The notes under the pieces: model-generated
What the model saw: the letters and a program-made list of their open reading frames with translations, nothing else
Databases searched by the model: none
What the model was told of the DNA's origin: nothing
Program-made: the position numbers and the translations under genes
In this document: piece by piece, positions 7,070-31,295 of the stretch
Layout of the letters: every line of letters begins with the position of its first letter
How positions within the stretch are numbered: position 1 is the stretch's first letter
NCBI GenBank assembly: GCA_049999805.1
Contig: JBNGIO010006013.1
Location: 1-37,335, forward strand
DNA length: 37,335 nucleotides
Source of the DNA: Folioceros fuciformis
Lineage: Eukaryota
Direction of reading: 5' to 3'

Positions 7070-8418
7070 TCACGGTCGATCGTTACAACTGCAAGAACCA
7101 GCTGCAAATCGATGGACACGGTATCCATCTCTAACAGCAATGTCTCTCTTCTCAACCCTTGACATGATCTGCGTGGCACCGTGGCAGTCACCACACACGC
7201 GTAGATTTTTCGTTACCAGCAGAGGTGTGGCACCGGGAGTGTTCAAGAGACCATACGCCAGAGCTAGTCTCTCAGCATGCCCGCAAAGCGCCTCTTCCTT
7301 TTCCTTCTCAGACAGTGACTTCAACACCAACTTCGTTTGTGGAACATGGCCCCCTTCCTCCTTTACACGGACGTTCATGCTCTCTGCTTCGAACGAAATT
7401 AAAGCCCGTCGTGCATCTTCCAGTTCCCAACGTTTTACATACATGTCCACCAGTCAGGTGCCAAGAAATAAATCAGGAGCAATGCCACTGTGCAAGTGCA
7501 CTTTCCTGCCAAACTCCAAGTCGGTTGAAAATGCGCAAGCTTGAAGAGCAGCTGCAAAAACGAGCGAATCTGCCTCCACCCCTGAGGTACGCATTTCAAG
7601 GTACAGTTGCACGGCATTACTAGGCTTCCCATGCTTAGCACATGCGGAGATAAAGGAAGACCACATGAAGGCATCTGGTTTTCCTACCCTGGTGAACACA
7701 TCCATGGCCTCTTGTAACCGACCTTCGCGTGCATACATGCGAAGCATATGGTTCCCCAAATATGTATCTGACTCGTACCCAAGATTGACCGTGAGATCAT
7801 GAACTTGACGCAGCACAGCCAAAGCCCTCTTAGCTGCAGACAGTTTGAGCACAGTACACAGCACACTGAGGAACAGCCTGTCTGCGCCAAGGATTTGACA
7901 GTGCCTCAGTCAGTTTCCTTTGGTGACTTCAATGGCTCACGGTTATGGTAGTTACTACAACCATTTCTGATTCTGCGGACCTGACGGGATGACGACAGCG
8001 TAACTTGGCGGGAGATGTACCATGACCCATCTGCATATCCAGAGCAATCAGCTGCTCGCCCACTCAAACTGGATTGGAAAAGTTGTTCAGCCAGAGGACC
8101 TCGCCGGAGCCCTCACGCCGGAAGTCAGGCGAACGGGAGCTCTTCGTATCTCTCCTGTTGTCCCACCACATGGTAGGCTCCACAAAAAATTGTTTCCACA
8201 AGAGCTCCTGTTCCTGGCGACGACCATCTAGAAAGCTGCTCCCCAGCCACAGCACTTCTCGGAAGTGCTGAAGGCCTTGCACTATCGTAGATCAAGCGTT
8301 CATTGTTCGCCAGAAATTTACTCCCTGAGGTGAGACGAACAGGAAATCTTTGGAGATTCCCTGTACACCCATCCATTGGATGGGTCCAGAACAGATCCGG
8401 TTGCCATGATGCAGCCAT
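7070..8418 (-). pseudogene. Pseudogenised, internally deleted paralog of the PDF-PPR-DYW:KP gene at 10931-13324
   Basis: Starts MAASWQPD (cf. MATIWQPD) and retains WKQFFVEPTMWWDNRRDTKSSRSPDFRREGSGEVLWL. It has frameshifts and in-frame TGA stops (approx. 8064 and 7454). The L-S-P-L-S motifs are joined directly to the distal DYW:KP part (HAERLA, CGDCH, ending CSCNDRP*). Confidence 0.9.
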
Positions 8419-8725
8419 CTTCCAGGCGCCCCGCTCGGGACATGAGTCGCACAACGAACTATGCAGACCGTAGCAGAATGCGTGGGAATTGTGAAGGACC
8501 AGCGAAGCGTGCAGATTCGACATCACCCTTCGCAAGTGCAAAGCACAAGCTTTAGGAGATGCGCGAATAGGAAAATTATCAGGAATCGTGTCCTACCCAC
8601 GAAGACTGCCTCCGTATCACTCTTTCCTCCATGCATGACATACGCCGAGCAAAAGAAGGCGACGGAACGGTGCATTGGGGCTCTAAGAGTGGGTCGGTCT
8701 AGAGATTAATACGCTTTGCTTAATC

Positions 8726-8810
8726 AGATTGGTAAGCTCTATTAAGCAGATTGGCAAGTTCTATTAAGTAGATTGGTAAGTTCTATTAAGTAGATTGGTA
8801 AGCTCTATTA
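8726..8810. repeat. Tandem repeat, 22-bp unit x ~4 (agattggtaag(c/t)tctattaag(c/t))
   Basis: Near-identical units start at 8726, 8748, 8770 and 8792. Confidence 0.9.
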
Positions 8811-9139: not shown

Positions 9140-10190
9140 TGTCTCCAGGATCCTTTGAGTGGTTTTTTAGAGCTTTTTATTCTTGTAGTTGTTGTGGTTA
9201 GGGCTAAGGTTCCCAATTAAATCTCACAAGTTTGGTGCATAGTAGGCTACTAGCTTTGGAAAAGCTACATGAAGGGTGCACTTTATGGCTATGAGGGAGA
9301 TGCTTTAAGACCGGATTAGCCATATTATTGCTATTCAACTTCGTGAACGCTTCCATGTACATCTTGCACTCCACTAATTTGGGCTTGCAATCCTAAGTGA
9401 GTGCGAATCTTACAACCCTCGATATTGAGGCCGCCCTCAAGTCACATCCTTATTAGGTGGCTTTATAAGTTGATATTGAGAATGATTTCAACACTAGAGG
9501 CTGTACAAGTTGATATTGAGAATGATTTCAACACTACTAGAGGCTGTACAAGTTGATATTGAGAATGATTTCAACACTACTATAGGCTGTACAAGTTGAT
9601 ATTGAGAATGATTTCAACACTACTATAGGCNNNNNNNNNNNNNNNNNNNNNNNNNNNNNNNNNNNNNNNNNNNNNNNNNNNNNNNNNNNNNNNNNNNNNN
9701 NNNNNNNNNNNNNNNNNNNNNNNNNNNNNNACTAGAGGCTGTACAAGTTGATATTGAGAATGATTTCAACACTACTAGAGGCTGTACAAGTTGACATTGA
9801 GAATGATTTCAACACTACTAGAGGCTGTACAAGTTGATATTGAGAATGATTTCAACACTAGAGGCTGTACAAGTTGATATTGAGAATGATTTCAACACTA
9901 TTTCTAAAGTCACCATCTTCTTGGAGGTAAGGAGCACATGTACCAATTGGCTTGTCTCATTCCATTTGTTCACTCTTTGTATGGCTTGCTACCTAAGCTT
10001 TATTACCAACAAAACGTGGTTATCGAGGGGGTCTCAATTTTTTTATTCAACAACAAGGCACGGGAATCTACTAAGGGGTGCTCTTTTTGCAATGACACAT
10101 GTTCTAGCTTTATATTCTACTGCCTTAGCATATTCGGAATGAGGAATGCATTTTTCTATATATGGCCGATGACACCCATTTGAGACATAA
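9140..10190 (+). mobile_element. Degenerate non-LTR retrotransposon reverse transcriptase remnant, CRE-clade-like
   Basis: Frameshifted and stop-interrupted peptides occur in RT order: SRLLALEK, H*FGLAILSECE (cf. HQFGVA..GGCE), VDIENDFNTISK (cf. D..NAFN.I.R), TRHGNLLRGALFA (cf. GxRQGDPLGxxLF), YMADDTHL (YxDD). Boundaries are approximate. Confidence 0.7.
9467..9900. repeat. Minisatellite, 43/40-bp unit gaggctgtacaagttgatattgagaatgatttcaacact(act)a, interrupted by a 100-N gap at 9631-9730
   Basis: About 4 copies are visible on each side of the gap. The true copy number is unknown. Confidence 0.95.
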
Positions 10191-10464: not shown

Positions 10465-10567
10465 TTGGTGCCATTACTTCATGGCTGCTTGGTGCCATTA
10501 CTTCATGGCTGCTTGGTGCCATTACTTCATGGCTGCTTGGTGCCATTACTTCATGGCTGCTTGGTGC
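10465..10567. repeat. Perfect tandem repeat, 24-bp unit ttggtgccattacttcatggctgc x4 plus partial copy
   Basis: Units start at 10465, 10489, 10513 and 10537, with a partial copy at 10561. A ~31-bp imperfect duplication precedes it (10412-10468). Confidence 0.95.
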
Positions 10568-10930: not shown

Positions 10931-13324
10931 TCATGGTCGACCTTTACAACTGCAAAAACCAGCAGCAAATCGATGTACACGGTAGCCATCCTTTACGACA
11001 ATGTCTCTCTTCTCAAGCCTTGACATGATCTCCGTAGAACTGTGACAGTCACTGCACATGCGTAGATTCTTTGTTACCACCAGAGGGGTGCCACTCGGAG
11101 TGTTCAAAAGACCAAACGCCAGGGCTAGCTTCTCAGCATGCCCGCATAGCATATCTTCCTTTCCCTTCTCCGACAGGGGCTTCCACACCAATTTTGTGTG
11201 GGGTACGTGGCCTCCTTCTTCCGTCAGACGTGCATTCGTGCTCTCTACCTTCAGCGCAAGATCATCTCTTCTGTCTCCCACCAAAAATGTATGTACCTGC
11301 GTCTTCACCTCAATGGTAGCCAGTGCAGGTTTCTTACTAGCTCTTGCTTCCATTCTCTGTGCTTCAATCCTCTCCACGTCGGTCCACCTACCTGCATCTG
11401 CATAGGTACTGGCCATGAGCACATAGGCAGACGCTCGCTGGGGGTCCAGTTTAACAAGGCTTTCAAAACACCGAATCGCCCTCTCTATATCCCCGTGACT
11501 TTTGCACGCATTCAGCAAAGACGTCAATCCCACAACATTACGTCGCCCCTCACATGATAAGAGCACGCTCTCCGCCTCATCCAAATGGCCGGCACGTCCT
11601 AGAAGGTCAACCACGCAATTATGATGCTCAGTCGTAGGTTTCAAGCCATGCTGCTCAGCCATGGAATGGAAGTGCTTAAGACCCTCAAGCACCAGCCCCC
11701 CGTGGCTGCATGCTACTAAAAGGGAAGTAAAAGTAGCATTATCAGGCTGAATACCCGCAGCTAACATCTCCTCAAAACAAGCTAGTGCTTTGTGAACTTC
11801 GTCGCAAGTACCATACCCAGATATCAGGGCATTCCATGTCACCACATCTTTAATGCGCAAGCTGTCAAAAACCCGGCGTGCATCTTCCAATGCGCCACAT
11901 TTTGCATACATGTCCACCAGGCAGGTGCCCACCAGTGGCTGGTGTAGCATCCGTCTTTCCACAATCTGCGAGTGCAGCTGCCTGCCTCTCTGTAAGGCAC
12001 CAGTGCTTGCACAAGCCTTCAGAAGGCAAGAAAAGGTAACATGGTTAGCCAAAATCAGGCCCTCCTGTTCCATCTGTTCATACAGTAGAAGTGCCTCCTG
12101 ACCAAGCCCTTGCTGTGTATATCCAGCAATCAAGGCATTCCATGTCACCACATTCTTTGAGGCCAAGCTGTCAAATACCTGGCGTGCAGCGTCCAGTTCG
12201 CCACATTTTGCATAACCACCTATAAGGGCCGTCCATGTCACTACATCCTTCGTAAGCAAGCTGTCAAAGGCCCCGCGTGCATGTTCCAGGTGGCCACATT
12301 TTGCATACATGTCCACCAGACAGTTTCCAACAAACAGGTTGGGAGGAATGCCACTGTGCAATACGTCAACGTGAACTTTCCTCCCAGATTCCAAGTCGCC
12401 TGCAAATGCACAAGCTTGAAGGGCAGCTACAAAGACGTGATTATCTGCCTTCACTCCTGAGCTACACATCTCATGATATAATTGTATGGCCTCCTTCGGT
12501 TTCCCATGTTTAGTATGGGCGGAGATGATGGAGCCCCACATGAAGGCATCCGGGTTGCCTACCCTAGTGAACACGTCCTTCGCCTCTTGTAGCCTACCTC
12601 CACACACATACATGCGCAGGAGATGGTTCCCCAAGTATGCATCCGAATCGTACCCGAGTTTAACAGTGAGGTCATGAACTCTCCGCCCTACAGCCAGATT
12701 CTTCTTGTCTCCACAGAGTTTCAGCACGTTATAAAACAAAGAGTGGGAGATAACGGAGTCTGTCTGCACCAAGGATTCCAGGGCTCCAACGGCCTCCGAA
12801 AGTTTCTTCTGCTGACATAACGTGCTCACAGTTGCAGCCGTTACGACGCCCATTTCCGATCCCATATCCCTGTCAGGTTGATGCATGTCCGGAGAGCTCG
12901 ACTTGCAAGGGCAGACATCATGATCCACCTGCATATCCAAAGCAGCCAGCTGCTCATCCACCCAAGCTGGCTTGAACATGCTGCTTAACCATAGGACCTC
13001 GCCGGACCCCTTGCGCCGAAAGTCAGGCGAACGGGAGCTCTTCTTATCTTGTCTGTTGTCCCACCACATGGTAGGCTCCAGAAAAAATCGCTGCCACAAG
13101 TGCTCCTGCTCCTGACGACCACCATCGCTGGAAAATCTGTCCCCACCCACGCAATTTGTGAGAAGTGGAAGTGCTGGGCTCCTTACACTTGTGAGCCTGG
13201 AGACTTGGCTGTTCGCCGAGGCTTGAACCCCTAAAATCAGGTGAGCAGGAGATCCTCGTACAATCCCTGGACGCACACCAATTTGTTCGGTCCACGACGG
13301 GTCCGGCTGCCAGATTGTGGCCAT
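10931..13324 (-). CDS. Intronless PLS-class PPR protein with E1/E2 and DYW:KP (GRP-type) domain, candidate organellar U-to-C editing factor, carrying an N-terminal OSB-type PDF motif
   Basis: 797-aa ORF with about 13 PPR motifs (P-L-S-P-L-S-SS-P-L-S-P2-L2-S2), then E1 and E2. KKPALA replaces the PG box, followed by HAEKLA, CSDCH and terminal CSCKGRP. Residues 76-130 read LWQRFFLEPTMWWDNRQDKKSSRSPDFRRKGSGEVLWL..PAWVDEQL. Confidence 0.95.
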   Translation of the reverse strand: MATIWQPDPSWTEQIGVRPGIVRGSPAHLILGVQASANSQVSRLTSVRSPALPLLTNCVGGDRFSSDGGRQEQEHLWQRFFLEPTMWWDNRQDKKSSRSPDFRRKGSGEVLWLSSMFKPAWVDEQLAALDMQVDHDVCPCKSSSPDMHQPDRDMGSEMGVVTAATVSTLCQQKKLSEAVGALESLVQTDSVISHSLFYNVLKLCGDKKNLAVGRRVHDLTVKLGYDSDAYLGNHLLRMYVCGGRLQEAKDVFTRVGNPDAFMWGSIISAHTKHGKPKEAIQLYHEMCSSGVKADNHVFVAALQACAFAGDLESGRKVHVDVLHSGIPPNLFVGNCLVDMYAKCGHLEHARGAFDSLLTKDVVTWTALIGGYAKCGELDAARQVFDSLASKNVVTWNALIAGYTQQGLGQEALLLYEQMEQEGLILANHVTFSCLLKACASTGALQRGRQLHSQIVERRMLHQPLVGTCLVDMYAKCGALEDARRVFDSLRIKDVVTWNALISGYGTCDEVHKALACFEEMLAAGIQPDNATFTSLLVACSHGGLVLEGLKHFHSMAEQHGLKPTTEHHNCVVDLLGRAGHLDEAESVLLSCEGRRNVVGLTSLLNACKSHGDIERAIRCFESLVKLDPQRASAYVLMASTYADAGRWTDVERIEAQRMEARASKKPALATIEVKTQVHTFLVGDRRDDLALKVESTNARLTEEGGHVPHTKLVWKPLSEKGKEDMLCGHAEKLALAFGLLNTPSGTPLVVTKNLRMCSDCHSSTEIMSRLEKRDIVVKDGYRVHRFAAGFCSCKGRP

Positions 13325-13720
13325 CGTTCAGGGCCCGCCGGCGGAGGATGAGGCGCACGACAAACCATGGCAGGACGCCTAGGTATTGCGCATGACCGCA
13401 CTACCTTTGAACGGCAGGCAGTGAAGTGACGAGTTGACACGCGGTCTACCATGGCTGCCAAAGAGATTCTCATGCCTTCGGACCAAGTATTAAGCAAATA
13501 ATAGACATCATGCCCCTGGCCAATCTTAGCCGCTCTTCCCCCTGAGTTTGCGGTGGTGCTCTGCTTTATCCCTTCCTGATGGCATTCCGCTGTCAAGATG
13601 CTCTGCACTCACGTCTGATGCTCTCAGACATTGCGCACGGAACGACATTGCGATTCAAAATGGTCATCTCGTGCTCGCGAGCCTCTGTCCATTTGCGGTT
13701 TCCCCACGCCAGGGCGTCGG

Positions 13721-15124: not shown

Positions 15125-18100
15125 CTAGAACGTGTTCCCTAATGCTAATTGGAGCCCCATTCCGTGCGCATGCTGCAGGTGCTTTGCCTTGCTCAATGCT
15201 TTTGTGAGGACGTCCGCCGTCATCAGGTTCGTTGGACAGTACACCACCTGCACCAGTCTGTTTGCCACCTGCTCCCTAATAAAATGATGCTGCACCTCCA
15301 GGTGTTTGGTTCTAGCATAGAAGCGCGGGTTCTCTGAGAGTGCTATGGCACTTTGGTTGTCGCAACTCAAGCGCATTGACAGCTGCTGTGGAGAATCGAG
15401 CTCAGCCAAAGCTCCGACTGCCCAGACTGCCTCCTTGCAAGCCTCTGTCAAGGATTTGTACTCTGCCTCAGTTAAGGACAGAGCCACTGTTGGCTGGCAC
15501 TTGCTGCTCCAGGAGATGGCACCTCCGGCCAGAAGAAACACAAAACTTGAGATGCTACGGCAACTGTCCTGGTCCCTGGCCCAATCAGCATCGCTGAAGG
15601 CCGTGAGAGTAAGTGCCCCAGCGGAACCTCCTTCGTAGAGCAGTCCCCAATCCTCCGTTGCCTTGATGTATCTGAATAGCCGCCTCATTGCTTGCCAGTG
15701 AGCCATTGCTGGATTCGCGAGAAACTGTGAGAGCATGCCCACGGCAAATGCAAGATCTAGACGGCTTTCCAACATCAGGTACATGACGCTCCCACTGAGT
15801 GAAGCATATGGGAACTCTGCCATCAGGCGCGCCTCTTCAGCTGTCAACTCCGGCTCTCCAACTTGTGCTCTATATTTCACATTCTGTTCACGTGGTGTAG
15901 AGATAGGTTTGCAGCTCTGCATCTGGAACCTTGCCAGGATTTGACGAATATACTTTGCCTGATGCAAAAAGATCCTTCGTCTTCGTCTGTCACGACTGAT
16001 CTGCATGCCTAGACAGAATGCCAGAGGGCCTGCATCTGTCATTTTGAACTCTGATCTCAATTGACGTTTCAGCTCCTCTATCATTGCTACAGTGTTTGAC
16101 ATTATTATTATGTCATCGACATAAATGGCTAGAGCTAAAAAATTCCTTCTTCTTGCCCTTCATCGTGTAAACGTTAGAGTCAGCATGCGTAGGGGTGTAG
16201 CCATGTGATAGGAGGAAGTGGTGAATCCTAGAGAACCATGCTCGAGGACTTTGTTTCAGTCCGTATAGGGTCTTCCTCAGCTTGCAGACTTTCTGGTGAG
16301 TGCCCTCTTCTGCTGTCAGGCCAGGAGGACACTCCATGAAGATTTCCTCATTTAGCTCTCCATATAAAAATGCTGTAGTTACATCTAGCTATTCCAGTTC
16401 GTAGTCATGAATGGTGGATAGGGCCAAGAACAGTCTTAGAGTGCTCATTTTGACGACTGGACTGAAGGTGTCTGTATAGTCAACTCCTTGAACCTGAGAG
16501 TAGCCTTTTGCTACTACACGACCCTTATATCTAGCTATGCTGCCATCAGCATTCAACTTTATTTTAAATACCCATTTACTCCCAACAGCCTTCCTACCTA
16601 GAGGAAGTTCAGCTAGCTGCCAGGTTTGGTTCTCCTTAAGTGATGCTAGTTCGGATGCAATAGCTTGCTTCCAATGCTTTGCATCCGGGCATGATAGAGC
16701 CTCCTCATAGGTTTGAGGTTCAAACAACTCTGTAGCAGCTGCTAGACAGTATGTTAGATTTGACTTGGAATGTTTTACATCCTTGGGGTGCCTCCAGTCA
16801 TGGACCTTGTATAGGTCTATCTCGCCTGCGGTTGTACGAACATGGTGCTCCCTTGGTGGAACTGGAACACTAGCAGGCTTCTTCTTACGCTGCTGTGTGC
16901 CCGAGGTGGGCACATGCTGATAATTGGAAGGGGTAGTGAACAGCTCCCCAGGTGAGACCACTCCTTCTATGTCAAAGTCACCAAACACAATTGACTCAGT
17001 TTGCTCGCTGCTGACTGGCCGTGTTGGCTGTTGTATTGCTGGAGTTGCAGGTGCTTGCTGAGGGATCGGTGCTGCAACTGGTGCCCCAGCTTGTGGTGCA
17101 GGCACTGCAGTTGTAGGGCCTGCAGGCTTGAACAGTCCTTCTTCCATTTCATCATCTGACTTGGAAATCAAATCAAATGTAGCTGCTCCCACTGAGTCAT
17201 GTGACTCAACACCTTCTAAAAATATGACATCCCTGGAATGTGTAACAACCCTGGTACGTCGGTCGATTACTTTGTACCCTTTGATGCCATTCGTAAATCC
17301 GATGAATATGCAGGAGATTGATTTGGGCTCAAACTTCTTCCTAAGGGTCTTGTGAATGTGGACGTACACAGGTGACCCGAAAACCCGCATGTGTGAGACA
17401 TCAGGCTTGGTTCCTGTCCAAACCTCGTATGGAGTCTTGCCCTCTACAGTTGAGTGCTCAATGCGGTTCTGTATGTATGTGGCATACGCCACTGCTTCCA
17501 CCCAATAGCTTTTTGGTAAGTTTGCATATGCTAACATGCTAGATGCTGAGGTTTCCAATGCTTTGTTCTTATTTTTTGTGACTCCATTTTGCTGAGGAGT
17601 CCTAGCGTTGGTAAGCTGTCTAGCTATGCCATGCTGGCTGCAGAATGCTTGGAATTGACCTGAACTGTACTCGCATCCGTTATCCGTACGCAGGGCCTTC
17701 AAGGTCTGACCAGTCTGCTTCTCTGCCCAAGCCTTGTATTCAGTGAAGCATTCTAGGGTTGAGGACTTGAGCCTCATGTAGTATACCACAGTGAATCGAG
17801 AAAAGTCATCAATAAAGGTGATGTAATAGGCCTTGCCTCCTAGCGAAATAGGTAGAGGCCCACAAAGATCACTGTGTACCAGCTCGAGCACCCTGGTTGC
17901 TCTCTCAGCTGGTTCAGATGGGAAAGATGCACGGTGGTGCTTCCCAATCACGCACGCTTCACATACTCCGAAGTCAGACAAGATGTCTAACTGTAATCCA
18001 CGCACCAGGTTATTTTTATGCATTCTTACAAGTTTCTGGAAGTTGAGGTGTCCCAGTCTTAAATGCCACAAGTATGTTAGCGAGGGCTTAACCAAATGAG

Positions 18101-19440
18101 CTGATGATGTGGTAGAGTTTGCCTGGTCCTTCTTCACATCAAGGTGGTAAAGATCATCAGCCCATAGTCCTCCAGTGGCCATTAGCTTTCCCTCGGCAGT
18201 CTCCACAACACATTTGCGACCACCAAAACAGATGAAACAACCAGATTCATCGATTTTGCTCGCAGACACAAGATTCTTCGCCAGGCCTGGTACGTACAAG
18301 ACTTCAGGAATTTCCAGATGCTGATCTGGATCAAGATCCAGCTGAATGGTACCTTGTCCTTCGATTTTGTGAGTTGTATCATCTCCTAAGCATACGTATA
18401 TGTCCCCTTGAATTGGCTGCAGATTAGTGAAGTAGGAGTGATGGGGGCTCATGTGTTGGGAGGCCCCGGAATCTATATACCATGCATGTTCAGCCTTCAA
18501 TGCATAGCAGGTGACCACTAGTGCTGAAACACCCTTGTCATGTGCAGCTTCTTGTGATTCATGCTGGACACATGCTGTAAATGCCTTGGAGTACTTCTTC
18601 ATCGTTGCAGCCAGGTTGCCTCCTATGTGGCTGCTTCCTGACTCGTTCGCCAATCTTTTTCTGCAGACCTCCCATGTGCGGTTTGGGATTCCAAAGTAGC
18701 CACATGGTGGCTTAGCTCTGGCTGAATTTAATGAGGTTGGCCGAGTTGGGAAGCCTCGGCCACGGCCTCTCCCTCTAAAAGTTGGCTTGCCTCTGCCTCT
18801 GCCTCTTGCTGTACCAAATTTGTTGGTGAAGAGGGCTTTGTCCCTTGCATCTATGGAAGATGTGGCCATCTTCCTACGATTCTCCTCGGTAAGCATCATG
18901 GAGATTACACGGTTAACCGTGATAGAAGCTACGTTTTGAAGGGACTGGACAACATTTGTCCAACTTTTGGGCAACTGAGACAAGAGAATGACTGCCATCA
19001 CCTCCTCGTCAAGTTTAAAACCAAGTGCTGTGAACTTGGTCTACCAGCTTTTCCAAGTAAGTACAAATTCTGCAACATTATCCATTTCCGCCATCCTTAA
19101 TCCCACAAAAGATTTTAGAATGTGGGTTTTGAGCATAAGATCAACTGCATCATAGAGTTCTAACAGTTGCTTCCACAGTGCTGCTGCAGATGTTATAGAG
19201 CCCATCAAAGTGGCGATGTGAGAGCTCTTGACGCTCATGGTGAGCAAAGTTCTGGCTTGCTGATTAGCAGCCTTCCAGTCTGCAATTTCATCGGTCGACG
19301 CTGTGGCTGGCGGTTCAGGTTTAACAACTTCTGCTCCTACATACTCCCCAAGGTTCCTAGATTTTAATAATTCTTCCATTCTGAATTTCCATTGACTGAA
19401 GTTCTGACCATCAAACTTGTCCTCTTTGGCCAGGGCGACA
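15125..19440 (-). pseudogene. Copia gag-pol polyprotein, disrupted
   Basis: Motifs: gag FDGQNFSQWKFRME; protease WYIDSGAS; integrase LWHLRLGH/CEAC/HSDLCGP/RTDNG; RT YGLKQSPRAW and YVDD; RNase H FSDADWA/EAEY/CDNQSA. TAG stops at 19041 and 16389, and a frameshift in the T-run near 16140. Confidence 0.93.
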
Positions 19441-27067: not shown

Positions 27068-30000
27068 CTACTTGCCACTTATCTTCCAGCCGTGCTGAGC
27101 AGCAACACGTTCAAATGCCATCTTCGCCTCTGCAGCCGAGTAGGACTGACCTATTGCAGCCCTGTCAATCTGACCTCCCCCTTCAATGAGGGAATTAACA
27201 ATCTGCACTAATACCATCTCAAAAGAAAAAGCAGGATTCCATCCACTCTCTGTAAGGAGCTCCATGCAGATACTTCCACCAACTGTTACGTGTCCTGTGT
27301 GGAAAGCAAATCTGGGATAAACTACACGAATGAAAGGCGGTTGAAATGGAAACCGACCTGGAAAGGTTACTTCGAGCAAAACATGAGCCTCCTCAACCTC
27401 CCTGCGTCCACCCCAATCACAGAGGTCCTCGTGTAAAGGATAGGCCTTGAAGAGTTGTTTGCCCAGACGGACATGCCAAGTATAAAAATTAGACTCGTCA
27501 GGAATCACTACGGAGATGTTACTCAGAAAAGTCGCCGCTGCACCTCCAGATGAAGACGCCTTTAACTTCTCTTTGTGAATCTCTTTGAGGATGTTCCTGT
27601 GTTCTTTAATGATGGCTTGAGTTGCCATTACAGTTCCCTCGCTTGCTCGCCACTTTTTCTGGTCTTCCACACTTTTTGCAAGCTGTGCTCTTCCGTTGAG
27701 CTTGTTGAGTGAATTTTCATCTGTAAGGCAAATGTCTTCCTCCAAAATCTTTAGGGCAGTTGAACGTTGCTGTTCCAGCTGTGACATGTGCTTTTTACGA
27801 TCAGCCAGCTTGAGATCTTGCAAATGAACAAGCAAGTCCACATCTGCCACTCCACGTGCTCCGTGTGATAGGAGCAGGTTGAGCTTACTTGGAGCTACCG
27901 AAGTGATTCCTGTAATTCCTGGGATACCGATTGTTTCACTCAGTAAGGTGGTGCCTGTAATCTTGTGTCCCATCATCGTCTTCCTGTCGCCAGGTCTGCA
28001 GACGAGCAAGTATCGTACTATTACGTTATCTTGCAATGTTGGCGGCACAACATGTATGTTCTCCGAGCATTGTGAAGAGCTCCCAATCACCACTTCACAA
28101 ATAGCCATCACACAGAAAGGCCACTCCAAGGTTCCCCCAAATTTCAATAGTTGAGTTCTATTTTCGAACTTATTAGCCATCGAATAAGAAAAGGAGAACT
28201 CGAAGGTATCAGCTAGATAAATACCCTGTCCAAATGAATCACCAGATGACATGTAGACTGTCCTGCTCATAGATCTGAGCCCGTTCCTCAGTATCGAATA
28301 CCAGTTACAGAGGCTGCTCCCATGAAAGGCAAAGAAAGATCCCCCAGCCGTCTGTCGAAGCTTCTGAAAAGTTTCTTCCTTCTCTGGGGAGTCATGAACC
28401 ACGACAAATTGGTGAGTCACCACGTCACGATCAAAAGGAAGCATTTCAGACTTCTCTAAGCTACGAATGGATACCCTGTTCGTTGACAAAATGAATCTCA
28501 GCAATTCATAGGACACATTGAGATCCTTGAACATAAGATTCTTCACGTACTTGCCATATGAGATATGGTCTGTACATTGAGAATATGCAAGCGTCTGTCT
28601 CAAAGGGACATGCGCTTCATACGTAGAATATGCAAGCTTCCGCCTCAAAGAGACTTCATCTCTGCACTCCCTCAAAGTGTCAAGAGGTGGGAGTGATACA
28701 ATGATTTGAGCCAATAACTGAAGGTTTTTGTTGGGAGTGGAGAACTGAAGGTTTTTGTTGGGAGTGAGAGTGAACAACTGAAGGTTATTGTTTGGAGTCC
28801 ATTGCTGAAATGAACCCCATGGACGCCATGTCTGAGTAGCTGGTCCTGCATGTTTCCTGTCTCCGTCACTTTGTCGCGTCTTTAAATTAGCATCCATGTC
28901 GGTGAACCAACCAGCACGTCCCCTTAGCCCGTTACCGTCTAAGAAGGAGTTTGGGAATGGCTCAAACACATCACGCCCTGAGACAGCAGCAGCATGTGCT
29001 AGGGCCACTTCCAGCTCGACCACTTGTGGGGATCCCAAAATCTCATGAAATATTGCCGAACCTTGTCCAAGTTCTTCAAATTTGTAGAGGCAAAACTCCT
29101 TTGAACAAGTTCGAAGTCTCCACATGGATGAAGGAAGTGAACACCAGCAGACGGGGCACCAGGTAGGCAGTGCCCTCAACTGGGATCCAATGAAATAGAG
29201 AAGACCAATGAAAGGGTTGGCCATGTCTGCACAGAAATCTAGACACTTGATCATTTGCTCGTTTTGCAGTGGCTCGCCTCTAGCCCCAGTACTTGTTCTG
29301 TAGGCACGATGAGATAGAAAGACTGTCACCAGCTCAGGCAGCAGCACGTCTGTTGCATATCCTTGTGCAGCCTCTGAACCACCCGTATCGTCCTTGTAAA
29401 GCTTGGAGAACTCCTTGTCAACGTAGGAGAAGGGCTTGGTATCGCTTTCACGTTTGTCGGTGGTCCACTGAGGCAACTGTCTGACCAGCACCTGTTGTGC
29501 TAGGAGAGGCTGGGACCGGCTCCGAATGAGATCACAATCAACTTGGAGTAAGCGCCTGTCGAACTGTAGTGAAATATTCAAGGGATCATCAAACGACAGT
29601 CCTAGAGCAGCAGCTACAGCTGCGTCATTAAATAATCCAGGCACCTGCAGCCGCAGATGCACGCTTTCTGCATGAGCGGACATGGAAACCACACAGAACT
29701 TGAGCATGCCCTCATCCATTTCGAATGGAGGCTGGGTTCCTGCTTGGCCTGGACTAGGCCCGTGTGAACCTGCGCGAACATCATCACATATCCGTCGGGC
29801 TTCCCGTGCTGCAGGTGCATAACCTCCACGGTTGGTGTCCAATTCCTCACACTCGAGGATGGGTAAAAGGTCCACAGAGGGGCCCTTCACGGCAAAGTCA
29901 TGTGCATCGTCGTCCTCACCTGGCGCACACCCGCTATCCTCTGAAACATAATCATCGCTACTATAGTCACTCCCAGTTTCACTTCCAAATTGGGATCCAC

Positions 30001-30424
30001 TGCTGGCCCCCTGGATGTCCCTCAACCCTTCCTCGACACTCGGTCTCGGGCTCGGTCTCTTGCCTGATGAGATCACCATCATTTTGAGAAACATATCCAG
30101 CACCTGATGAACAGCCCCTGCCGGGTCCGACCGACACGGAATTCGCTCCAATTTCTCGTTCAGCTGCGTCACGAATCCTTCCTCAGCAGAATCATCAGGG
30201 CTCATAGCGACGAAGCTGCCTTCCCCTTCGTCTCGTCCATCGGAGAAGTGAGACGGCAGAATCAAATGAAACAGCATATCCGCGACGAAGAAGATCAAAG
30301 CCGATTCCGTGGCCTCGGAAAGCCTGAAACCATGCGACGCTGCCTCCTTTGCATGTTGACGCACCCACGACGACCAGACGGCAAAATTGCCTTGCGCTGT
30401 CCCCAGGACTCCACTACCAACCAT
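27068..30424 (-). CDS. Intronless PARP6/8/16-like mono-ADP-ribosyltransferase fused to a C-terminal UBE2Q-like ubiquitin-conjugating (UBC) domain, ~1118 aa from first ATG
   Basis: Cys cluster CPVC..TCSKEFC (PARP6/8-like). ART motifs AFHGSSLCNWYSILRNGL, GQGIYLA, MAICEVV and ENIHVV. UBC reads LLEVTFPGRFPFQPPFIRVVYP..GHVTVGGSICMELLTESGWNPAFS..EAKMAFERVAAQHGW. First ATG is at 30424; the ORF track starts at GTG 30616. Confidence 0.9.
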   Translation of the reverse strand: MVGSGVLGTAQGNFAVWSSWVRQHAKEAASHGFRLSEATESALIFFVADMLFHLILPSHFSDGRDEGEGSFVAMSPDDSAEEGFVTQLNEKLERIPCRSDPAGAVHQVLDMFLKMMVISSGKRPSPRPSVEEGLRDIQGASSGSQFGSETGSDYSSDDYVSEDSGCAPGEDDDAHDFAVKGPSVDLLPILECEELDTNRGGYAPAAREARRICDDVRAGSHGPSPGQAGTQPPFEMDEGMLKFCVVSMSAHAESVHLRLQVPGLFNDAAVAAALGLSFDDPLNISLQFDRRLLQVDCDLIRSRSQPLLAQQVLVRQLPQWTTDKRESDTKPFSYVDKEFSKLYKDDTGGSEAAQGYATDVLLPELVTVFLSHRAYRTSTGARGEPLQNEQMIKCLDFCADMANPFIGLLYFIGSQLRALPTWCPVCWCSLPSSMWRLRTCSKEFCLYKFEELGQGSAIFHEILGSPQVVELEVALAHAAAVSGRDVFEPFPNSFLDGNGLRGRAGWFTDMDANLKTRQSDGDRKHAGPATQTWRPWGSFQQWTPNNNLQLFTLTPNKNLQFSTPNKNLQLLAQIIVSLPPLDTLRECRDEVSLRRKLAYSTYEAHVPLRQTLAYSQCTDHISYGKYVKNLMFKDLNVSYELLRFILSTNRVSIRSLEKSEMLPFDRDVVTHQFVVVHDSPEKEETFQKLRQTAGGSFFAFHGSSLCNWYSILRNGLRSMSRTVYMSSGDSFGQGIYLADTFEFSFSYSMANKFENRTQLLKFGGTLEWPFCVMAICEVVIGSSSQCSENIHVVPPTLQDNVIVRYLLVCRPGDRKTMMGHKITGTTLLSETIGIPGITGITSVAPSKLNLLLSHGARGVADVDLLVHLQDLKLADRKKHMSQLEQQRSTALKILEEDICLTDENSLNKLNGRAQLAKSVEDQKKWRASEGTVMATQAIIKEHRNILKEIHKEKLKASSSGGAAATFLSNISVVIPDESNFYTWHVRLGKQLFKAYPLHEDLCDWGGRREVEEAHVLLEVTFPGRFPFQPPFIRVVYPRFAFHTGHVTVGGSICMELLTESGWNPAFSFEMVLVQIVNSLIEGGGQIDRAAIGQSYSAAEAKMAFERVAAQHGWKISGK

Positions 30425-31295
30425 AGCGACTGACTCGCCCTGCTGGCTGCGCGCAACGCTGCGCAATCCAGCTCTCCTCTTGATTCTGTTTGCCCTCTCC
30501 TCTCGATCAAATTCCTTCACCTGGACACCTACCTCGGGGTATTCCCTCCAGCTGCAGCTGCAGAGCTGGAGATTGACCGTCCGACCAGGCCCCCGAATGG
30601 CAAGCACGCTGCTCACAAACGCGCGCGTCCGACAGCCAATCGAACAAATTCCGCTACATGCGAGTCAGCAGAGTATGCAGATACCACCAAATAGGGAAGA
30701 AAAAAAGAAAGGAAGGAAAGAACGGAGGAGTAATCCAAAGCAACAAGTGCACGACGCTAGATTAGTTCTCCAAATCTGGAAAAGTGAACACGCACCTAGA
30801 GAGGGCAGCGTCAGCGTCCACCCCAGAGTAGAGAAGCGGAGACGTCGTGTCGGACGAGCTTTCAGACGACTTAAGACAATTTTTGTGGTTAAGAATATGG
30901 AGGGTCCGTTAGAAATGTTATCAACGGCTCCACAAAACAGCTGCACACGACAGCTCAAAATGGGAAAACACTCAGCTCTCATCTCCAGAACATGAAAATA
31001 GTGATACATAACTAGCCGTCAGGACCACACCATACCCTCTCCTGCATGAAGGCATACGTGTACCGCGCACACTTGTACTGTACATACCTGCTTACTATGC
31101 AATACAAAAACGAGAGATCGTTGGAAGGAGGAGAGGAGGCGACAGAGCAGCCAGCTGTCTGCGGGTGGATGCAGCCAAGTCACAAGTCGGTGCTGGTCAC
31201 GATCGCCATGCAATGTCGATGAAGCTGACAAAAGATGCGTGAAGCGTCCCCACGCTCCGACACTGTGAACCAGCATCCCACTAGACTGACCCGGA

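Follow-up and report, generated by a model that had tools for sequence, protein, structure and literature searches.

An intact DYW:KP gene of the GRP subgroup, encoding a candidate U-to-C RNA editing factor, beside a decayed tandem copy

Does the stretch of 37,335 nucleotides of contig JBNGIO010006013.1 analyzed here (the window, meaning this whole stretch) carry a natural gene for an enzyme that changes uridine into cytidine in RNA? The question was raised by a preliminary description of positions 10931-11335, in which a variant deaminase-like domain, termed DYW:KP, was recognized and attributed to an intact natural U-to-C editing factor from a hornwort-like host. Our analysis established that the gene is intact, and settled the class and subgroup to which its product belongs as well as the product's architecture, fold and catalytic residues. 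That its product acts as a U-to-C editing factor is probable by analogy with synthetic enzymes modelled on the same subgroup. Published work on the family is cited here by PMC number.

Positions 10931-11335 of the minus strand correspond to the final 134 residues and the stop codon (10931-10933) of an open reading frame (ORF) of 797 amino acids (aa), whose 2,394 bases are free of internal stops; the codons of the motifs in this final part were checked by hand against the DNA. From N- to C-terminus the protein shows a PDF-like motif, 13 pentatricopeptide repeat (PPR) motifs, the E1 and E2 motifs and the DYW:KP domain. Every PPR, E and DYW family matched by this protein was far above its Pfam cut-off, the PPR families ranging from 1e-61 to 1e-25 (PPR 1.4e-61, PPR_2 1.2e-60, PPR_1 8.9e-43) and the E_motif family reaching 1.7e-11. 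The nearest database protein (P0001) aligned from aa 28 through to the end, being 72% identical in the domain and 54% identical in the last 600 residues. Judged from its sequence, the gene is nuclear, lacks introns and codes for a PLS-class PPR RNA editing factor of the DYW:KP class, GRP subgroup. The full open frame, with all catalytic and zinc residues kept, confirms that the gene was rightly called intact. The coordinates of its parts are collected in Table 1.

Assignment of the C-terminal domain relied on the features by which DYW:KP is told apart from the common DYW:PG type. The domain matched Pfam DYW_deaminase (PF14432) at 3.2e-31, scoring 107 bits where the cut-off is 24, with residues 705-795 covering profile positions 1-91 of 93. 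In a homologue search for which residues 655-797 were scored, 115 of 473 candidate proteins reached E <= 0.001; these 115 were aligned with the two copies present in the window, and the resulting 117 rows comprised 36 with HAE and 81 with HSE at the active site. The motifs read in the preliminary description, namely KKPALA in place of the PG box, HAE, an intact CSDCH and a GRP end, are all present on the minus strand. We take the histidine of the CxxCH motif to belong to the second zinc site, as it is usually assigned. The strict KPAxA box, by which DYW:KP is defined (PMC11845758), occurred in 21 of the 36 HAE rows against 1 of the 81 HSE rows, and the window protein fits it. Its HAE likewise agrees with the published DYW:KP signature, HxE(x)nCxxC with Ala or Cys rather than Ser (PMC9478123, PMC11845758). 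The shortened region that had been noticed after HTFLVGD was also borne out: box and HxE lie 65 residues apart in the window protein and 64-65 apart in 26 of the 36 HAE rows, versus 68 in 61 of the 81 HSE rows. This difference of three residues indicates that the xHP element is missing, an element described as conserved in DYW:PG and absent from most KP proteins (PMC9478123).

The remaining features concern the subgroup. Among the 34 database HAE rows, 4 ended in GRP, 11 in DRH and 19 otherwise. In GRP proteins the lysine K103 of DYW:PG is described as replaced by glutamate and the C-terminal aspartate as lost too (PMC9478123), and the window protein shows both changes, with E at the K103 position and G at position -3. 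The K103-equivalent was other than K in all six rows ending in GRP or DRP (E, E, E, T, Q, Q) and was K in the 30 remaining HAE rows. By contrast, the equivalent of Lys88 of the designer enzymes was K in 117 of 117 rows and is thus common to the KP and PG types. None of the three DYW:PG hallmarks (PG box, HSE, DYW or DFW end) was found in the window protein. It combines the PLS-E1-E2-DYW architecture, KPAxA, HAE...CxxC, loss of xHP, a place on the KP side of the tree described below and the lysine, and it almost certainly belongs to the DYW:KP class as far as these sequence features define it. Its GRP end, the replacement of K103 by E and a single clade shared with GRP-ending proteins are those of the GRP subgroup. 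An exhaustive search of 1.84 billion cluster representatives gave 2,366 DYW relatives at E <= 0.001. Of the 150 matches listed among these, six were already in our set, and the 144 newly found proteins, some of which hold two HxE...CxxCH motifs, showed HSE 115 times, HCE 16 times, HAE 11 times and other forms 3 times. With HAE found only 11 times among the matches listed, GRP-type representatives appear to be rare in the cluster library.

The preliminary description had proposed to place the domain in a phylogeny of DYW clades. We built a maximum likelihood tree with IQ-TREE (LG+C20+F+G4) from 79 DYW domains and 137 columns, the rows being all 36 HAE domains and 43 of the 81 HSE domains, which had been thinned at 75% identity. 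Branch support is quoted as ultrafast bootstrap/SH-aLRT, from few columns for the number of rows and a bootstrap short of full convergence (correlation 0.981). The tree separated a KP-box side of 37 rows from the PG side (100/99), and the window domain fell on the KP side and not with DYW:PG. It paired with the adjacent decayed copy (95/86), this pair joined the four GRP-ending proteins in a clade of 6 rows (100/98), and these grouped with the DRH rows in a clade of 18 (99/82), outside of which the named fern rows P0027 and P0042 branched. A separate quick tree recovered the same groups. The glutamate at the K103 position is an independent marker that agrees with the placement in the GRP clade. 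One database protein on the KP side, P0039, showed an intermediate combination of markers, with a KP box yet HSE and a TKV end.

Concerning catalysis, the window protein retains each of the 17 columns that do not vary in an alignment of 61 DYW domains of KP and PG type, and these columns include H66 and E68 of HxE, K89, C94, C97, H98, H121, C128 and C130 in domain numbering. An AlphaFold2 model of the domain, built on the 61-protein alignment, had a pLDDT of 94.8 and a pTM of 0.88, and only the last four residues were of lower confidence (block mean 75). In phmmer searches the domain matched solved DYW structures at 1.6e-34 to 5.4e-27. The top Foldseek match of the model was 9kfx, a complex of a synthetic PPR-DYW protein with RNA (TMq 0.92, rmsd 1.3 Å, E 7.8e-16), followed by OTP86 (7o4e/7o4f; TMq 0.77-0.81) and DYW1 (7w86; TMq 0.75) with E of 1e-10 to 1e-11, and after the DYW structures by more distant cytidine deaminases. 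The model can be overlaid on DYW domains of known structure, so that neither the deletion of three residues nor the GRP end is at odds with the DYW fold.

The functional reading draws on designed enzymes. KP2 and KP3, which were built on hornwort GRP proteins, showed 26% and 22% U-to-C editing in E. coli and U-to-C editing also in HEK293T cells, with no C-to-U editing seen in either system; these data, which the preliminary description had mentioned in general terms, are in print (PMC9478123). HAA and AxxA mutations abolished this editing (PMC9478123). Lys88 is described as essential for U-to-C editing by KP2, KP3 and KP6, its replacement switching the enzyme to C-to-U (PMC11845758), and a lysine Schiff-base model of the reaction has been put forward (PMC11332814). 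Because the synthetic enzymes of GRP consensus act in this way, we regard the window protein as probably a U-to-C editing factor. It would be imported into a plastid or a mitochondrion, and its 13 PPR motifs with E1 and E2 would bind a specific stretch of about 15 nucleotides directly 5' of one uridine, with the S2 motif opposite position -4. The C-terminal zinc deaminase-like domain would then turn that uridine into cytidine; H729, E731, C757 and C760 would hold the zinc site and catalysis, and K752 would attack C4 of the base as the nitrogen donor. Import, target, direction of the reaction and turnover are in this scheme carried over from the family.

The completeness of the PPR array allows a target to be predicted. 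The motifs were parsed by counting back from the DYW domain with the usual motif lengths, which gave the order P?-L1-S1-P1-L1-S1-SS-P1-L1-S1-P2-L2-S2. In the PPR literature these motifs have established names and lengths, and S2 faces nucleotide -4. Table 1 gives, for P and S motifs, the residue pairs formed by the fifth and the final residue, and with the PPR code as we assume it these pairs would read U, (G?), U, A, Y, G, U and Y at positions -14, -13, -11, -10, -9, -7, -6 and -4, respectively. The E1 motif is thought to face position -3 (PMC9478123).

Several points weigh against a working U-to-C enzyme, some of them at the locus and others in the published work. At the locus, the array appears to have been remodelled in frame, since parts of it repeat one another and it falls short of P0001. 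A tandem repeat of 93 bp (31 codons) at 12139-12307 of the minus strand spans the S1 and SS motifs with 80% matches in TRF, further stretches of the array repeat one another at 76-86% DNA identity in blastn, and at the site of SS and the 93-bp repeat the PLS motifs of P0001 are longer by about 150 residues in all. The SS motif itself is chimeric, resembling the start of a P motif joined to the end of an S motif. Within the domain there are conservative differences at two nearly invariant positions: domain position 115 has K where R is usual, and D116 is followed by G-Y. Finally, the decayed tandem paralogue found 3.4 kb away indicates that the local DYW:KP family duplicates and loses members.

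This paralogue consists of the N-terminal part and first PPR motifs joined to a DYW:KP domain that ends in DRP. Positions 12267-13369 match 7401-8463 at 70.7% DNA identity and positions 10931-11246 match 7070-7385 at 82%, and about 1 kb is gone from the paralogue, with which it has lost most PPR motifs, both E motifs and the first part of the domain. Its joined frame holds an in-frame stop at 7454-7456 and its N-terminal ORF (8125-8541) lies in a different frame; its DYW domain still scores 7.2e-34 on Pfam. The 797-aa gene might on this evidence be silent, or be a young duplicate that is still open and not functional, or encode an RNA binder without catalysis, and the internal rearrangement of the array and a Ty1/copia element 1.8 kb upstream fit such a fate. 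However, its 2,394 open bases contrast with the stop, the frame change and the 1-kb deletion of the neighbor, a contrast which argues that the frame of 797 codons is being kept open. All invariant catalytic and zinc residues are moreover retained, and the N-terminal motif, the PPR consensus residues and the E motifs are well preserved. We consider a loss of function of this kind to be unlikely.

The published points concern activity and its direction. The activity of natural KP proteins is stated to be unknown in PMC11845758, the U-to-C activity of KP6 was not reproduced in vitro and synthetic KP enzymes remain crosslinked to RNA (both PMC11332814). The failed in vitro reaction and the crosslinked enzymes together suggest that full turnover requires a further, as yet unknown factor. 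KP6 also performs C-to-U editing, and the alanine of HAE is not decisive for direction (PMC9478123). The window protein could thus be an active editing factor that works C-to-U, or in both directions, in spite of its KP features: both activities have been seen for KP6 in human cells, and its C-to-U activity also in vitro (PMC9478123, PMC11332814), single substitutions switch the direction (PMC11845758), and the window protein has the complete zinc site and the glutamate that a hydrolytic deaminase would use. Yet KP2 and KP3, the designs on the very subgroup to which the window protein is assigned with 100/98 support, gave U-to-C only according to PMC9478123, and the window protein has the lysine required for this reaction. 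C-to-U or bidirectional editing appears improbable to us, and U-to-C editing by the window protein remains our reading.

Concerning the host, DYW:KP proteins are described as confined to the hornworts, the lycophytes and the ferns (PMC9478123, PMC13386178) and GRP and DRH as hornwort subgroups (PMC9478123), so both the lineage restriction and the hornwort ends mentioned in the preliminary description were found in print. It is solely from this restriction of GRP and DRH that we infer a hornwort-like host. An origin from a fern or lycophyte, or a DYW gene acquired horizontally by a non-plant, has the best named match on its side (P0027 of the fern Adiantum, 55%) and is nevertheless very improbable, because the GRP and DRH ends mark hornwort subgroups while tracheophyte KP proteins form a separate cluster (PMC9478123), both fern rows lie outside the 18-row GRP and DRH clade, and the other window content is plant-like nuclear DNA with a copia element, long intergenic repeats and a gap.

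Besides the two PPR copies, the window holds the following. Between them lie intergenic tandem arrays at 8720-8810, 9459-9900 and 10465-10567 with periods of 22, 43 and 24 bp, respectively; the 24-bp array is 100% regular, and an assembly gap (Ns, 9632-9730) falls within the 43-bp array. The Ty1/copia-type retroelement occupies 15125-19001 of the minus strand as two ORFs, between which gag, beta-barrel, integrase, SH3-like and RVT_2 domains were recognized. Its reverse transcriptase is divided between the two ORFs and the element is probably damaged. Taken together, the gap, this element and the long intergenic arrays look like eukaryotic nuclear DNA. A frame of 1,182 codons at 27068-30616 (minus strand) joins a PARP catalytic domain (7.7e-13) to a UBC domain (4.3e-08), which is an unusual pairing. 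Among other ORFs of the window, no Pfam family was found for 7 of 7 in one scanned set and for 2 of 6 in another.

At the N-terminus of the protein, residues 68-132 form a conserved block that local phmmer searches found also in P0001 and P0003 (both GRP), in P0014 (DRH) and in two HSE-type proteins. A profile of six copies of this motif gave 302 matches at E <= 0.01 against the longer proteins. The 120 of these that were listed were mostly PPR proteins of the lycophyte Diphasiastrum, of mosses (Sphagnum) and of the liverwort Calypogeia, with one protein of the fern Adiantum, and they included proteins named OSB2 or OSB3 by their sources at 1.8e-36 to 6e-26. In BLASTP comparisons the N-terminus of the window protein matched all three repeats of each of two OSB proteins (best E 5e-12 and 1e-12). 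The motif is the PDF motif, a unit of 50 residues that is sufficient for single-stranded DNA binding in AtOSB1 (PMC6963530). It was present in 121 of 374 collected proteins, in 1 to 11 copies each, and in PPR proteins it is usually N-terminal, the first copy starting at a median residue of 72. No Pfam model matched it even at E 10, a search with the motif at the 'shorter' length setting found nothing, and ESM Atlas gave no usable match. Pfam scans of the whole protein and of aa 1-158 contained no SSB or OB family.

In the open-access full texts searched, no paper linking the PDF motif with PPR proteins was found, where the fusion may still be described, and neither PDF nor OSB is mentioned in the hornwort survey PMC13386178. 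The fusion of PDF and PPR motifs may be a less expected item than the DYW:KP gene. That natural PLS-PPR editing factors of non-seed plants, of both the KP and the PG type, use the motif as a functional module for nucleic-acid binding is a speculation to which we give little credence. In the account given by PMC9478123 the designer KP proteins have no such motif, and it could for this reason be part of what the crosslinked, poorly editing synthetic enzymes lack.

Table 1. Features of the DYW:KP gene, its neighboring copy and the residue pairs of the PPR array (positions in the window).
Feature	Position	Strand	Description	Evidence
Whole coding sequence	10931..13324	-	single uninterrupted ATG-to-TGA ORF, 797 aa	
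PDF-like motif	12929..13123	-	aa 68-132, homologous to PDF repeats of OSB proteins	phmmer, profile, BLASTP
PPR array	11537..12847	-	13 motifs, aa 160-596	Pfam PPR families, motif parse, TRF, internal blastn repeats
SS motif	12152-12244	-	31 aa, inside the 93-bp tandem repeat	
E1 and E2	11336..11536	-	PPR-like motifs, aa 597-630 and 631-663	Pfam E_motif, motif parse
DYW:KP deaminase domain (assigned)	10934..11335	-	GRP subgroup, aa 664-797	Pfam PF14432, tree, model
KP box	11318..11335	-	KKPALA, fits KPAxA, replaces the PG box	translation, alignment
HAE	11132..11140	-	putative zinc-binding His and catalytic Glu; Ala where PG types have Ser	translation, alignment
Lys aa 752	11069..11071	-	domain position 89, aligned to Lys88 of designer KP enzymes	alignment
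CSDCH	11042..11056	-	CxxCH, two putative active-site zinc cysteines	translation, alignment
Glu aa 765	11030..11032	-	at the K103 position of DYW:PG; GRP-subgroup marker	alignment, PMC9478123
C-terminal GRP	10934..10942	-	replaces DYW	translation
Decayed tandem paralogue	7070..8541	-	N-terminal part with the initial PPRs, fused to a DYW:KP domain whose end is DRP	
Position -14			residue pair ND	
Position -13			residue pair GD	
Position -11			residue pair ND	
Position -10			residue pair TN	
Position -9			residue pair NN	
Position -7			residue pair TD	
Position -6			residue pair ND	
Position -4			residue pair NN	

U-to-C editing is the only pyrimidine transition that lacks a natural enzyme of demonstrated activity, and all activity data come from consensus designs. 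An intact natural gene of the GRP type offers a concrete protein to compare with these designs, and the decayed paralogue alongside it offers a comparison of its own. The value of the gene is that of a test object; hornwort-type genomes hold many genes like it, and these have already been surveyed. According to PMC9478123, DYW:KP was defined in 2020 and the hornwort GRP type was described by Gerke et al. 2020; a survey of 2026 counted DYW:KP genes across 22 hornwort genomes (PMC13386178). The window protein itself was absent from the protein collections searched, the nearest being P0001, and the gene may already be listed in published supplementary lists of hornwort PPR proteins.

Among known systems, the OSB proteins compare with the window protein in one motif. 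Residues 68-132 match each of their PDF repeats, but OSB proteins have an OB-fold, SSB-like domain N-terminal to these motifs that the window protein lacks, and the window protein, unlike them, has a single N-terminal PDF copy followed by a PPR array; on these sequence grounds it shares the motif yet is no member of the OSB family. The DYW:PG factors (OTP86, DYW1, 9kfx) have in common with it the fold (TMq 0.75-0.92), the zinc ligands, the glutamate, the lysine and the PLS-E1-E2-DYW order, whereas they carry a PG box, HSE, xHP and a DYW end where the window protein has KPAxA, HAE, a 3-residue deletion and GRP. The DRH-type hornwort proteins, on which KP1 was based, are its sister within the 18-row clade and share the KP box, HAE and domain length, but have D at position -3 and still show K at the K103-equivalent (11 of 11 rows) where the window protein has G and E. 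Closest are the hornwort GRP proteins on which KP2 and KP3 were based, with the same KP box, HAE, loss of xHP, M before CxxCH, GRP end and change of K103 to E, and the four GRP-ending database proteins stand in the same clade. By its sequence, the window protein is a further member of this catalogued family and not a new kind of enzyme; it differs from KP2 and KP3 in having its own PLS array of 13 motifs and a PDF-like motif, whereas the designers carry a synthetic PLS array of 3 triplets.

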